DNA from: Cirrosporium novae-zelandiae
Lineage: Eukaryota
Assembly: GCA_026023565.1 (NCBI GenBank)
Contig: JAPETS010000021.1
Span: 372,001 to 436,000, forward strand
DNA length: 64,000 nt
Direction: 5' to 3'
The notes under the pieces are model-generated. The model saw only the letters and a program-made list of their open reading frames with translations. It had not been told where the DNA came from and did no database searches. The number at the start of each line of letters is the position of its first letter. The stretch's first letter is position 1. Shown here one piece after another: positions 12,272-47,365 of the stretch. The translations under genes and the position numbers were made by a program.

Positions 12272-14713
12272 ATGGGACAGCCATCCTTCCAGGCTTCTAA
12301 TGCCATCATCTACTTGTCTTATGCGGCTTTTTTGTGAGTGACTTCGCATAGCTAGCCCCTCCTTCGTCTACAATAAAACGGATTGACCTAATTTCCTCTC
12401 ATCACAGGATTTCTGGGCTGTACGTTGCATGGCGATGGAGGCATCAATCGAAAAGCGAATTCCTTGCTAGCAATAGGACTCAGAAGGGTTAGCAAAATAA
12501 ACATGACGGCAATGCACTTGCCTTCTTGTTCGGACCTCATTGGCTTCAAGGTGACCCCATCACACTTAACCAGAAGCTAATATTCTCTTAGCAATACCAC
12601 TTGCCTTGAACTTTATAGCTTCGGGTGAGTGCATCGGCGCTCGCATTATTTGATCGCAAGAAGCGGCAGCAAAAGTATTCGATGAGACAAGGGCTGTCTG
12701 TCCATAGACCCTAGAAATATACGATATAGACATGGCTATACTTAATCTGGGAATTGTTAGAGAAGCAAGGTAATAGGTTCGTATACAAAAGCATTAACAC
12801 AACTGGAGGCCTTCGACGTATGTCCACTAAAATTCAATGTTCAATTGATGCTTTGTGTGATGTGTGGAGAAGGCCACTGTTGTGCGGCTCCACTACGGGC
12901 GCTGATTGCGGGCTATCTTCCATCGATCCAACTCCTAGAAATTATTAGGAGGGATCTAGGAAGCCCCTGCCTTTGCATGAAGCTGAGAATGTACCGTGAG
13001 AACTCGATCAAGTTAATGCTTGCGTGAGGAACGTGCTGCCGCTTCTAATCCCTAACCCCCCCTTTGTGTCTAGCTCTAGGTTCGCTAACCCAAATTTCTT
13101 TCCTCTTCAACAGCATTGGGGTCCGGGATTCTATTTTCATATCCTGAAATATCCACCATTGCTGGTGTACAAGGGCTTGTCATCTATGTACTTTCCTCGT
13201 CTCTTCCCCTGATGGTTTTTGGCTTCTTGGGCCCAATCATCAGAAAAAAGTGCCCTGAAGGGTTTGTCCTGACAGAATGGACTCGAAAGCGTTATGGCCT
13301 TATTACAGCTCTGTACTTGAGTACAATGACGTATGGACTGTTAAACAACAAACAAGCAGGTTTTCGTTTTTTACTAACTGGAGAACTAGGATAATCACCC
13401 TCTTCCTATACATGGTTTCCGAACTATCTGCTCTCCAGCAGATTATTACCGCTATGACGGGCTTGGACGGCCTGCCAGCAGTGATTGTTGAGTGCGTTGT
13501 TACAACTATGTATACATGTAAGAGTCATGTAACCCTAATTTCTCTATTTAAAATGCCAATTATTTTTTATAGCGCTAGGTGGCTTCCGGGTTTCTTTTAT
13601 CACGGATAATATCCAAGGAGCTATGGTGGTCGGGTTGATTATCCTGGCAGTCATCACTGTTGGTGCAGAGACAAAACTCGACCGTAGCCTTGTGGACTCC
13701 TCCGGCTTACTTGATGCTAGCTTGCTAGGTTGGCAGCTTATATACATCTTCCCGGTGGCCATATTAACCAACGATTTCTTCATTTCCGGTTTCTGGATGC
13801 GGACATTTGCCTCTAAAACCGATAAGGATCTCATGATTGGCACAACCATTGCCACTGTCGTCGTAACCATTATTCTCACCCTGGTTGGCACGACTGGTCT
13901 CTTAGCTGCCTGGACAGGTGTCTGGCCGGGAAACCCACCTCAGGATGGCTCTATCGCGTTCTTCCTTCTTCTTGGTCAACTCCCTTCCTGGGTTGTTGGT
14001 ATCATCCTAGTCATGACAGTCTCTCTCAGTACCGCTGCGTTTGACAGTCTCCAGAGCGCTATGGTTTCAAACGGCAGCAACGACATATTCCGCAACAAGC
14101 TTAGCCTATGGTGGATTCGTGCTGCTGTGGTTCTTGTCATCATTCCCGTCATAGTTGTTGCGCTTAAGAGCCCTAGCATCCTGCAAATTTACTTGATTAG
14201 CGATTTGGTAAGTGCGGCTGTGGTACCATGTCTTGTCATTGGCTTGAGTAATAAATGCTGGTGGTGGCGAGGGTTTGAGGTTGTTGTAGGTGGGCTTGGT
14301 GGACTCCTTAGTGTCTTCATATTTGGGTGTATTTACCTCGGAAACGCGAAGGATGGTGCTGAACTGCTCCTGCTGGAAAATGGATTGTACGGTGACGATT
14401 GGAGTGCTTTTGGTAAGTGTATTACGCCTTTGGTCTTCTGGCTTTCATTATATGCGGAACTAATAGCAATTATAAAGGTGCCTTCGTTGCCGCCCCCTTC
14501 GGCGGGCTTCTCTTCGGCTTCATGGCTTTGGGTCTTCGACTCTTTTTTCAGTACACACATGCAAGAATCAAGGGCCATAAATTTGATGCTCTTGATCGTC
14601 CGGCGTTTGTTGACCCATCTATCTATACCGCCGTACCGATCACAGATGATGATCGGGTACATGTTGTTGATGAGGAAGCGCCAAATAAGGTTGATGAAGG
14701 AGGAAGGTTCTGA
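12272..14713 (+). CDS. Sodium:solute symporter family (urea-transporter-like) putative thiamine or thiamine-precursor transporter; NCU01977-like
   Basis: Spliced MGQPSFQASNAIIYLSYAAF...IPLALNFIASALGSGILFSYPE...FLYMVSEL...GGFRVSFITDNIQG, with many TM segments. Contains an intronic TPP aptamer. Confidence 0.85.
12884..13042 (+). promoter_or_regulatory. TPP (thiamine pyrophosphate) riboswitch aptamer in intron 12625-13113
   Basis: Core GCTGAGAATGTACCGTGAGAACTCGATCAAGTTAATGCTTGCGTGAGGAACGTG (12982-13035) matches the TPP consensus CUGAGA..UACC..GAACU.GAUC..G.UAAUGC..GCG..AGGAA. P2 is ACGG/CCGT. The extended P3 stem comprises CTTCC/GGAAG, GATCC/GGATC and CTCCTA/TAGGAG. P1 is GCGGC..CAC/GTG..GCCGC. 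Confidence 0.9.
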
Positions 14714-45684: not shown

Positions 45685-47365
45685 CGACGAAAACGGAGGT
45701 GCGGAGTGGCACCATATGACACGATGAATGTTGGCATTGGCTATTCCTTGAATAGTCGATTTATCAACTCTCAATTAACAAATATATCTATGAGGACCGG
45801 CAAGAACACAATCTACATTATAGGTTTACATAGGAACATTAATAAATTCAAGCAAATGATCCAAATTAAATTATTATGAGCTAGTTGAAAAAATGCGATC
45901 AAACAAGTAGGGTTGGTGACAATGGTTTGTAATGACTACTTGAAGCCACCCAGTTAGCATGAGAAGTTCACGGTGAAATGAAGAACTTAGAAAAATGGAG
46001 GATGTGTCCTCAGTGATCTTGGTGTAAAGCATGATCATACCCCGAGGGGTCAGTTACTATCTAGTGCGTGATGGTGTAATCATAGGACGGAGAGAAAGCA
46101 AATAAAGCACTGCGTACCTTGTTGGGGAAAATTCATCAGGATGACTTTGACGTTCCTATTATAATATCGTTAAGAAAGTCGATGGTGAGTTTGGTTAACA
46201 TTCCTAGTTGGTATATGAATAAAGATAGCCAAGGCCATCATAATATTGTGTAGAATATAGTCATTAAACATGCTGGGCGAAAAAATTCTATGGCCTAGAT
46301 ACCTATATAATTAGCCAAAGCCCTAGAGCAGACTTGGAAGGCAAATATTTGTTATTCATAAAAGTTCAGAATATGTAAGAAAGTGAATATCATAACCATG
46401 ACATCGTATAGAAACCCAGGCGAGAGCTTCACGATGAAATGGTCAATCGTAAATTACCGCATCATGAAAATAGAGCAATCAAGAAAAGCTGGAATGACTT
46501 ACTACTTGGATGTGTCGGCCCTGGGGGTGCTGTTCTCATGCCCATTGAACAGTTGCATTAATGTTCGCTCCAGCAAGAAATTCTGCTCAAATTCAGAGGG
46601 AACATCATGAAAATCCCTAGGTCGAAAGACTTGTTTGCTTTTGTACCTACTTGGAGTTGTTGAAGTAATGAAAAAGTTGGGGGGAAAGAAGTAGAGAAAA
46701 TTGCGCCGCAAGATATAAGCTTCCAGCCGGCGCTAATCCGGATAAGCTAACTACAATGGGCAGATATCGAGCCCTATTCCCACCCAGAACACTGAGAACT
46801 TCAAGATTTCTTGACTGTTAGGTTCAAGCGCCGACGACAATCATTTCCAGCAAATTCCCTTTAAAGGTATGCAATTCAAATATCTAACTATTCTCTATGT
46901 TCTTAACTAAGCGTGACTACAAAATCTAGGTATGCAACTTTTCCTACGCTGATCTCCCAACTCCTCTACCCCAGTCACTATTGTTCCATCAGCCATAAGA
47001 GATACCTTCATCTGGCGAGTCAAGACATCTAGGGAAGATAGCCATAGAAACATATAAGCCAAAAGCTGGCTGCTGTCTGGGCGAACCTAGATTTCTGTTC
47101 TGTCGTTTCCCAATCTTGCCACTGTTCCAACCCGCCAAATGTCTCTGTCATTGCTAGTCCTTGAACGTTTAGGCTCGCTGAAGAGTTGGAATGTTTCTGG
47201 AATGATGAAATATGAATGACTGTACTATGCATGATGGCCGACTTTCAGATTTGGTTTTGGGGGCCCTTCTCGAACTTGATTTCAGAAGCTTGGGAGATGA
47301 CTTGCTCTAGCTTTTTGCTTACGGTTTTCTTTCCCTTAGGCTCCGTCGAATACTCATCCGTCGCC

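Follow-up and report, generated by a model that had tools for sequence, protein, structure and literature searches.

The host gene and its third intron

The window, a 64,000-nucleotide stretch of Cirrosporium novae-zelandiae DNA, carries on its forward strand a seven-exon gene interrupted by an unusually long third intron. In-silico splicing of the seven-exon model (12272..14713, + strand) yielded a 531-aa open reading frame without internal stop. The gene and the landmarks of intron 3 are as follows:

12272-12333, 12408-12487, 12592-12624, 13114-13330, 13390-13517, 13573-14412 and 14478-14713, + strand: the seven exons of the host gene (in-silico splice)
12625..13113, + strand: intron 3, carrier of the predicted riboswitch, 489 nt, GTGAGT...CAACAG (sequence and in-silico splice)
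12625-12630, + strand: first donor (S1), GTGAGT (sequence)
12651..12653, + strand: in-frame TGA, kept upon internal-donor use or intron retention (ORF 12570..12653)
12818..12823, + strand: GTATGT, a further candidate internal donor (by sequence only)
13085..13089, + strand: CTAAC, likely branch point, about 25 nt 5' of the acceptor AG (sequence)
13112-13113, + strand: acceptor AG of intron 3 (sequence)

The predicted protein aligns end to end with proteins of 532-536 aa at 70-77% identity; for the 532-aa homolog P0018, the whole length (residues 1-531) is aligned at 77% identity. Over exon 6 the best protein matches are Teloschistales MAG proteins (81-83%), and proteins named 'urea transport' from Microsporum, Coccidioides and Paracoccidioides are among the relatives at 75%; these genera appear in the list given by Li & Breaker 2013 (PMC3597705). 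A Pfam search with four single-exon translations returned no family at E ≤ 0.1, and assignment to the SSF family therefore rests on the full-length homologs, which pass the PF00474 cut-off. Placed through these homologs, the host gene is an SSF-family transporter gene of the DUR31/NCU01977 type, NCU01977 itself being known here from published descriptions.

The source records name the homologs 'urea transporter'. Donovan et al. 2018 (PMC5997356) describe DUR31 as the ortholog of NCU01977, report that DUR31 deletion confers pyrithiamine resistance, and demonstrate thiamin transport by the family. By analogy with these proteins, the host would transport thiamine rather than urea, as an earlier note on this DNA had proposed.

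That note also placed a 489-nt intron within the coding sequence, and its boundaries at 12625-13113 were reproduced here. The remaining five introns of the gene measure 55-104 nt each. Of the orthologous loci examined, 61 of 80 are interrupted by an intron at this very codon. Read-through out of exon 3 ends after 67 aa, at the TGA at 12651 that the note had named, and the internal GT sites that it listed (GTAATA at 12770, GTATAC at 12781 and GTATGT at 12818) are all present at the level of sequence. A further candidate internal GT site lies at 12777. The CTAAC near the acceptor conforms to CTRAC, the fungal branch consensus.

TPP aptamer and the alpha-alpha' helix

Intron 3 contains a predicted TPP aptamer and two segments, alpha and alpha', that are complementary to each other:

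12884..13042, + strand: TPP aptamer (RF00059 match, MFE fold and ortholog alignment)
12884-12888/13038-13042 and 12891-12893/13033-13035, + strand: P1 of the aptamer (fold)
from 12894, + strand: P2 of the aptamer, followed by a long P3 (fold)
12983-12988, + strand: CUGAGA of the aptamer (alignment to the RF00059 consensus)
13003-13028, + strand: P4/P5 hairpin of the aptamer (fold)
12659..12671, + strand: alpha element, AGAAGCGGCAGCA, starting 34 nt past the first intron base, at intron position 35 (helix and consensus)
13034..13046, + strand: alpha' element, TGCTGCCGCTTCT, ending 67 nt 5' of the 3' splice site (helix)

The MFE fold of 12882-13046 is the canonical three-way junction of P1, P2-P3 and P4-P5 (-56 kcal/mol, z = -2.03), and the pairing of P1 gives exactly the aptamer limits reported in the earlier note. 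The covariance-model check suggested there gave a match of RF00059 to 12947-13048 with 38.4 bits, for which E was 1.1e-5 when scanned locally and 5.9e-4 when the entire window was scanned. This lies below the gathering score of 54.3, and a scan in gathering mode listed nothing for the window's aptamer. The shortfall is explained by P3, whose insert of about 75 nt leads cmscan to thread the 5' half wrongly. Among 17 scanned ortholog loci only L048, with a shorter P3 (36-nt insert), passed in gathering mode, at 54.4 against 54.3 bits, the other 16 falling below.

CUGAGA (J3/2), ACC (P2') and the GCG after P5 are the ligand-pocket sequences that contact TPP in the thiM and THIC crystal structures. 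In the window all three align with the RF00059 consensus, and an alignment of distinct orthologous aptamers shows CUGAGA, ACC, the P4/P5 core and GCG unchanging in 43/43. Every column that is invariant among these 43 aptamers is intact in the window. RNAalifold recovered P2 (5 pairs), P4 (4) and P5 (4) from the same set, three of these pairs with changes on both sides. About 10 nt 5' of P1, roughly half of the orthologs carry a semi-conserved GGT[A/G], which reads GGCC in the window.

Alpha and alpha' (12659-12671 with 13034-13046) form 13 perfect base pairs, the longest helix in intron 3. None of 1000 shuffles equalled its energy, and when 12592-13140 is folded by partition function without ligand, its pairs have a mean probability of 0.965. 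The element includes the consensus RGCGGYRRY as AGCGGCAGC (12662-12670). As alpha' covers 9 nt (13034-13042) of the 3' strand of P1, the alpha-alpha' helix and P1 exclude each other.

We examined the conservation of this arrangement in orthologous introns taken from metagenome contigs, comprising 48 unique introns including that of the window; 19 of the 80 loci were left out where there was no recognisable exon 3 with a GT at the expected place, or where upstream sequence was missing. The aptamer pattern was not found in L041. RGCGGYRRY occurs inside the first 110 nt of 36 of the 48 introns, and contiguous alpha-alpha' pairing reaches at least 11 bp in 32 and at least 9 bp in 38 of them. Median values for the alpha start (36 nt) and for the distance from alpha' to the acceptor (62 nt) were obtained from the same orthologs. 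Counted in register, the seven core alpha/alpha' positions are paired in 34/34 distinct combinations, with covariation at the flanks (position -3: GC 14, AT 8, GT 7; position -2: AT 14, GC 6; position +8: AT 21, CG 3, GT 3), and the paired fraction is 0.83 as against 0.27-0.63 after a slide of 1-3 nt. The alpha' duplex is matched by at most 5/100 shuffles in 32 of 47 introns, with a cluster mean z of -2.67 over 21 clusters. The strict consensus is missing from 12 of the 48 unique introns, and L034, L042, L053 and L069 lack a convincing alpha; the helix is therefore not universal. Taken as a whole, the comparative set provides independent covariation support for the alpha-alpha' model.

The predicted splicing switch and an invariant 9-mer

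Li & Breaker 2013 (PMC3597705) describe a long-range helix in NCU01977 between an alpha element (RGCGGYRRY, less than 60 nt past the first 5' splice site) and alpha', which is the 3' shoulder of P1. Their deletions and compensatory mutations show that splicing from S1 is driven by this helix, and they find expression to be repressed by thiamin. The intron in the window resembles that system closely. In both, a long intron with the aptamer splits the coding region of a gene of the same transporter family; alpha fits the consensus within 60 nt of the first donor; alpha' sits at the 3' shoulder of P1, and the pairing is continuous over at least 11 bp (13 in the window); internal GU sites, an in-frame stop and a long variable P3 are likewise shared. 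The differences are that the window's intron has 489 nt, against about 600-680 nt in that system and a usual 550-650 nt (PMC3597705), that its alpha' lies 67 nt from the acceptor where 'commonly <60 nt' is described (PMC3597705), and that it belongs to another, apparently lichen-fungus-like, lineage of Pezizomycotina and is described here from its sequence. The Candida parapsilosis DUR31 gene, for which thiamin-dependent splicing has been demonstrated, encodes an orthologous family member that imports thiamin; Donovan et al. 2018 (PMC5997356) deemed a long-range interaction unlikely in its 351-nt intron, whereas alpha-alpha' is clear in the window.

Comparison of the orthologous introns also revealed a second short conserved element:

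12775..12783, + strand: AGGTTCGTA, near-invariant 9-mer and candidate alternative donor AG/GUUCGUA, with its GT at 12777 (ortholog conservation)

Among the 48 unique introns, 45 contain the 9-mer, 43 of them exactly; it lies between unconserved flanks, 57-127 nt 5' of the aptamer. AGGTTCGTA is probably a conserved alternative 5' splice site that would serve as a donor. Pairing of the 9-mer with the aptamer was also considered and rejected, since the duplexes, at -6 to -12 kcal/mol, are weak and have no consistent partner. The motif does not appear in the main text of Li & Breaker 2013 or of Donovan et al. 2018, and supplementary figures S6-S9 of the former may already show it or alternative donors. 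Literature searches for GGUUCGUA/GGTTCGTA, with and without the riboswitch context, turned up no relevant paper among the matches listed.

Intron 3 is thus very probably a eukaryotic TPP riboswitch of the class named 'Type II' by Mukherjee et al. 2018 (PMC5882874), an OFF switch acting through alternative splicing in a DUR31/NCU01977-type thiamine transporter gene. What is observed here is that the sequence elements are present, that alpha-alpha' and P1 exclude each other, and that the arrangement is conserved and covaries among orthologs; the Neurospora experiments serve as the guide to ligand binding, to the direction of the switch and to the donors that would be used. At low TPP, P1 would remain unformed and alpha' (13034-13046) would pair with alpha (12659-12671), 34 nt past the first donor. 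The resulting 13-bp helix would loop out about 360 nt, the internal donors included, and bring the first donor (12625) near the acceptor (13113), such that the whole intron would be spliced out and the 531-aa transporter produced. At high TPP, the ligand-bound aptamer (12884-13042) would lock alpha' in P1, with loss of the long-range helix. Splicing would then use internal donors, most likely the conserved AG/GUUCGUA at 12777, or the intron would be retained; either outcome would keep the TGA at 12651 and give a truncated product of 67 aa. Non-productive splicing at high TPP, as the earlier note had envisaged, is most likely by analogy with Neurospora.

Possible additional pairing with P4/P5

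Two segments upstream of the aptamer are complementary to its P4/P5 region:

12636..12657, + strand: 'beta1', the element of the earlier note, core 12643-12656, complement of P4/P5/L5 at 13004-13026 (RNAduplex -22.8 kcal/mol)
12789..12798, + strand: 'beta2', AAGCATTAAC, 10-bp perfect complement of P5/L5 at 13012-13021, nested within alpha-alpha' (helix search)

Such complements recall NMT1 (THI5) and THI4, where, as summarised from Cheah et al. 2007 in PMC3597705, the intron is in the 5' UTR, the complement of P4-P5 lies across an alternative 5' splice site and the switch acts via uORFs; Li & Breaker 2013 (PMC3597705) likewise treat pairing through P4-P5 as the NMT1/THI4 mechanism. In the window, however, the intron lies in the coding region, the conserved helix uses P1, and neither complement overlaps a GT: 12636-12657 is without GT, and 12789-12798 begins 5 nt 3' of the 9-mer. 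We have therefore not filed the intron as NMT1/THI4-type; an auxiliary role of that kind may exist.

A composite switch of this sort is compatible with the alpha-alpha' mechanism, and we regard it as a tentative possibility. In addition to alpha-alpha', P5/L5 (13012-13021) would pair with 12789-12798 at low TPP, and this nested second helix would prevent folding of the aptamer and impede the internal donor AG/GUUCGUA (12775-12783) in the manner of NMT1/THI4; a point against this is that it does not overlap the donor itself. The helix is the second longest in intron 3 and has a pair probability of about 0.71 together with alpha-alpha'; a perfect 10-nt run arose in 17/3000 shuffles, and the best and second-best anti-P4/P5 duplexes were jointly matched in 5/1500. 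Pairing of P4-P5 to the S4 region has been proposed by Li & Breaker 2013 (PMC3597705).

The sequence of beta2 itself is not conserved in relatives. Complementarity to P4/P5 shows a mild enrichment when 21 ortholog clusters are taken together, with a mean z of -0.70 (Wilcoxon p = 0.019), and a reverse-complement control gave -0.18 (p = 0.54; paired p = 0.046 against anti-P4/P5), but the enrichment is weak and post hoc. Values of z ≤ -1.64 occur in 5/21 clusters, leaving 16/21 with no signal. In the four such clusters besides the window's the element lies 3' of alpha, and is therefore nested. About eight lineages share a CGCA-N-AG[C/T]A motif at intron position ~70-76, whose C/T tracks the aptamer sequence AAT[G/A]CTTGCG with one exception (L034). 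Against this, neither the position nor the sequence of the anti-P4/P5 element is conserved, and L071 carries a compensatory change in P5 without a matching change in any upstream element. The best duplex falls just 5' of the 9-mer in 11/19 clusters (chance 0.37, p = 0.049); as a control probe behaved similarly (9/19, p = 0.21), this clustering was found unconvincing.

The earlier note had instead assigned the switch to 12643-12656 and likened its pairing with P4/P5/L5 to the long-distance mechanism of NCU01977. The complementarity is genuine: 12643-12656 and 13005-13019 share GCATTA/TAATGC (6 bp) and TTGATCG/CGATCAA (7 bp), separated by a 1x2 internal loop and extensible by 3-4 outer pairs, and nearly all of the P4-P5 hairpin is spanned. 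Its energy was reached in 7/1000 dinucleotide shuffles of the upstream intron, and in 24/1500 with a slightly different probe, and thus exceeds chance, if not overwhelmingly. An element like it occupies the same place in one related ortholog, L009 (reached by 3/100 shuffles), and P4-P5 pairing has been suggested as the source of the residual thiamin response after alpha deletion (Li & Breaker 2013, PMC3597705). The type of riboswitch was recognised in the note, but its long-range helix was not, as the helix published for NCU01977 uses the 3' shoulder of P1 (Li & Breaker 2013, PMC3597705), and alpha-alpha' at 12659-12671/13034-13046 was absent from the note.

It is very unlikely that at low TPP 12643-12656 (up to 12636-12657), and not alpha-alpha', pairs with P4/P5/L5 (13004-13026) to unfold the aptamer and promote the first donor. 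The helix is missing from most close orthologs; in L001, L003, L005, L007, L008, L010 and L011 z lies between -0.25 and +0.25, with the best site elsewhere. Having no GT, the element masks no donor. It also crosses alpha-alpha' (in the order beta1, alpha ... P4/P5, alpha'), so that both helices together would require a pseudoknot in which linkers of just ~2 nt and ~7 nt bridge helices of at least 13 bp, which we judge sterically implausible; a nested partition-function fold gives it a probability of 0.0 as against 0.97 for alpha-alpha'.

Least credible of all is a decaying relic in a constitutively spliced intron on which thiamine has no effect in this organism: the sub-threshold Rfam score and the GGCC 5' of P1 would fit such decay, but all columns invariant in the 43 distinct aptamers are intact, P1, P2, P4 and P5 are all paired, the 13-bp alpha-alpha' helix is perfect, the conserved 9-mer is preserved, and the length of intron 3 among its short neighbours argues for maintained function.

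The alpha-alpha' switch belongs to a type previously elucidated in Neurospora, and the find, though correct, is an ordinary one. It adds a further fungal lineage, one with lichen-forming fungi as its nearest relatives in the databases, to the range of a well-characterised eukaryotic riboswitch mechanism; a literature search on TPP riboswitches in lichens gave nothing relevant by title or abstract. The find supports annotating the host as a thiamine transporter in place of 'urea transporter', which is of practical value for annotation and leaves understanding unchanged. The analysis raises the questions of why AGGUUCGUA is invariant and what the anti-P4/P5 complements contribute to the switch. 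In a speculative reading that we hold to be possible rather than probable, the NCU01977/DUR31 intron could be a three-element device of alpha, aptamer and the sub-optimal donor AG/GUUCGUA (45/48), to which movable anti-P4/P5 elements are added in some lineages; without ligand, these would engage in a further long-range helix and provide the route of the residual thiamin response in alpha-deleted Neurospora constructs. The second helix may be nested in alpha-alpha' in most lineages, the window then having a nested copy at 12789-12798 as well as a crossing one, the helix of the earlier note. If true, this would amount to more than the two-element device in print.

Host gene, intron and aptamer

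In silico splicing of the host gene model yielded a 531-aa ORF with 0 internal stops, of which residues 1-531 align with the annotated 532-aa homologs P0018 (77%) and P0004 (75%). The host gene introns are 74, 104, 489, 59, 55 and 65 nt in length. Because the ORF is open when spliced and the other introns measure 55-104 nt, the 489-nt intron claimed in the earlier note is judged real and exceptionally long within this gene. The in-frame TGA was confirmed at 12651-12653, and intron read-through leads to termination after 67 aa.

Features of the host gene, riboswitch intron and window (window coordinates; aptamer elements from the fold of 12882-13046)
12272-12333, 12408-12487, 12592-12624, 13114-13330, 13390-13517, 13573-14412, 14478-14713, + strand: host gene exons, modelled by eye, then checked
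12625-13113, + strand: riboswitch intron, 489 nt, GTGAGT...CAACAG
12659-12671, + strand: alpha, AGAAGCGGCAGCA, consensus RGCGGYRRY at 12662-12670; perfect reverse complement of alpha', 13034-13046
12775-12783, + strand: 9-mer AGGTTCGTA, in 45/48 unique introns (43 exact)
12789-12798 with 13012-13021, + strand: beta2, second anti-P4/P5 complement, 10 perfect bp
12884-12888/13038-13042 (GCGGC/GCCGC) plus 12891-12893/13033-13035 (CAC/GUG), + strand: aptamer P1
Between the P1 strands, + strand: aptamer P2 and long P3
13003-13028, + strand: aptamer P4-P5 hairpin
46364-46469, - strand: C/D-box snoRNA, Rfam Afu_514, full length, 83 bits vs gathering score 39

The exon-6 query recovered 392 proteins at E <= 1e-10 (7999 candidates scored). 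At 81-83%, the best matches come from metagenome-assembled, lichen-forming Teloschistales and are 531-532 aa long, and many further matches across Pezizomycotina are labelled 'urea transporter' or 'Na+/solute symporter'; Microsporum, Nannizzia, Coccidioides and Paracoccidioides are among the matches at ~75%. Three full-length homologs passed the Pfam SSF model (34.6-43.2 bits vs a cut-off of 22.8), and single-exon pieces from the window gave no Pfam match. According to the accessible portion of Donovan et al. (2018, PMC5997356), the clade of DUR31 and NCU01977 is distant from the urea/polyamine Dur3 proteins, and DUR31 deletion confers pyrithiamine resistance, i.e. thiamin uptake; the inference that thiamine rather than urea is the substrate was therefore right, and is already published for DUR31. 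The same portion places the C. parapsilosis riboswitch intron likewise after about 58 codons.

When the whole window was scanned in Rfam gathering mode, no TPP element was listed, the snoRNA (consistent with a filamentous ascomycete origin) being the sole above-threshold match. In E-value mode, RF00059 matched 12947-13048 with 38.4 bits (E = 1.1e-5 in a 1.2-kb scan), and over the whole 64 kb this was the sole match besides the snoRNA (E = 5.9e-4). The alignment is clean over the 3' half of the aptamer (CUGAGA, ACC, GAAC, P4-P5, GCG and GGA); its 5' half is mis-threaded into P3, as the true P1/P2 5' strand lies ~75 nt further upstream. When 12882-13046 is folded alone, the architecture is canonical (-56 kcal/mol, z = -2.03, 6/200 shuffles equally good), with P1 ends coinciding exactly with the aptamer limits proposed previously, 12884-13042.

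Searched with the exon-6 protein, metagenome contigs provided 80 orthologous loci (56-84% identity). A blastn match to the 3' half of the aptamer occurs in 66/80 (rows counted by us), and in 61 an intron interrupts the same codon position, identified by the exon-3 peptide followed by GT. Including the window, the set comprises 49 unique introns (229-604 nt), 48 of them with a recognisable aptamer. Two loci, L057 and L058, in which exon 4 and the aptamer were found but the exon-3 peptide was not at the expected distance, were excluded. Across 43 aligned distinct ortholog aptamers, CUGAGA, ACC, the P4/P5 core and GCG are invariant, and RNAalifold recovered P2, P4 and P5 (13 pairs, 3 with compensatory changes). 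Gathering mode was passed by 1/17 ortholog loci, L048 (54.4 vs 54.3), with a correct global alignment and a P3 insert of 36 nt. As this aptamer reaches the threshold, the sub-threshold score of the window aptamer is ascribed to the length of P3 stems in fungi rather than to a false match.

Pairing of alpha with the 3' shoulder of P1

For NCU01977 of Neurospora crassa, the accessible text of Li & Breaker (2013, PMC3597705) describes alpha as an element of consensus RGCGGYRRY, commonly <60 nt past S1, the first 5' splice site. Without TPP, the 3' shoulder of P1, termed alpha', pairs with alpha, which favours S1 use and expression; with TPP, alpha' is locked in P1 and internal donors are used, leaving stop codons. 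The window matches this published arrangement exactly. Its alpha-alpha' helix is 13 bp, with no longer helix in the intron, and its energy was reached by 0/1000 dinucleotide shuffles of the upstream intron. Alpha' shares nine nucleotides with P1, and alpha-alpha' and P1 are therefore mutually exclusive. The ligand-free partition-function fold of 12592-13140 gives alpha-alpha' a mean pair probability of 0.965.

The alpha consensus falls within the first 110 nt of 36 of the 48 unique introns, and contiguous alpha-alpha' pairs number at least 11 in 32 and at least 9 in 38; alpha starts at a median position of 36, and the median alpha'-to-acceptor distance is 62 nt. A fixed-register count covered 41 introns (34 distinct combinations), omitting L048, as atypical, and introns that lacked GCGG/CYGC cores or an aptamer (eight in all). 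The seven core positions are paired in 34/34 combinations, the flanks covary (-3: GC 14, AT 8, GT 7; -2: AT 14, GC 6; +8: AT 21, CG 3, GT 3), and the paired fraction is 0.83 in register vs 0.27-0.63 when slid.

Some introns depart from this layout. In L048 (3043-3650), the one locus with an aptamer above the gathering score, the intron measures 577 nt and the aptamer lies close to its 5' end, with 404 nt between aptamer and acceptor; both canonical alpha and AGGTTCGTA are missing. Short introns (229-233 nt) occupy the same position in L041 (497-763) and L053/L054. The L041 intron contains an alpha-like AGAGCGGTAGCG, yet the aptamer pattern was not found by regex, and the riboswitch may have been lost; L053/L054 keep a compact aptamer, with alpha and the 9-mer absent.

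Complementarity to P4/P5

The earlier note had instead proposed regulation by a helix between 12643-12656 and P4/P5/L5 (13005-13019). This complementarity is present (6+7 bp) and can be extended to 12636-12657 with 13004-13026 (-22.8 kcal/mol), an energy reached by 7/1000 shuffles, compared with 166 and 943/1000 for two control aptamer segments. It is unusual. The claim that it matches the NCU01977 mechanism failed, since that mechanism uses a different helix, alpha with the P1 3' shoulder; the accessible text of Li & Breaker (2013, PMC3597705) assigns P4-P5 pairing to NMT1/THI4. The closest relatives mostly lack the proposed helix, and only L009 carries a comparable element at that position. 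The best anti-P4/P5 duplex was reached by <=5/100 shuffles in 11/47 introns, compared with 4/47 for a reverse-complement control and 32/47 for alpha'. Given the order beta1 (the 5' strand of this helix), alpha ... P4/P5, alpha', it crosses alpha-alpha' with linkers that would be ~2 and 7 nt, and its probability in the nested ensemble is 0.0. Not in the cited mechanism, not conserved and crossing alpha-alpha', it is very unlikely to be the regulatory helix: the right object had been recognised, with its mechanism assigned to the wrong helix.

The beta2 helix is nested within alpha-alpha' (probability ~0.71). A run as long as its 10 bp occurred in 17/3000 shuffles, and the window's best and second-best anti-P4/P5 duplexes were jointly matched in 5/1500. 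With 47 introns collapsed to 21 sequence clusters, anti-P4/P5 pairing gave a mean z of -0.70 (Wilcoxon p = 0.019) and a control probe -0.18 (p = 0.54; paired test p = 0.046). Five clusters have z <= -1.64; apart from the window's, all four of them have the element downstream of alpha. CGCA-N-AG[C/T]A recurs as a motif in about eight lineages at intron position ~70-76, its C/T matching the aptamer G/A in AAT[G/A]CTTGCG with one exception. When these elements were tested for clustering beside the conserved donor, the control did equally well. The pattern, post hoc and not universal, is suggestive, and fits a remark in the accessible text of Li & Breaker (2013, PMC3597705) that the thiamin response left in alpha-deleted constructs might be due to P4-P5 pairing near a proximal donor.

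Alternative donors and class membership

In the unique riboswitch introns, 57-127 nt separate AGGTTCGTA from the aptamer downstream, and the flanks of the 9-mer are unconserved. It can be read as a donor, AG/GUUCGUA, which would be complementary to the U1 5' end at -2 to +2 and +5 to +8. Most likely it serves as a fixed and sub-optimal alternative 5' splice site, with U and C invariant at +3/+4. Its GT at 12777 was absent from the three donor candidates listed previously. No consistent aptamer pairing partner was found for the 9-mer, nor was it found in the searchable main text of the relevant papers. GGT[A/G], which may be a proximal donor, occurs ~10 nt upstream of P1 in about half of the orthologs; GGCC takes its place in the window (12866-12883), so this site is absent.

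At the level of sequence, all defining features of the 'Type II' class (Mukherjee et al. 2018, PMC5882874) were found, and the window intron classifies as a genuine TPP riboswitch intron of this NCU01977/DUR31 type, with TPP binding and thiamine-dependent splicing predicted. The mechanism class is already known, and the window intron adds another member.
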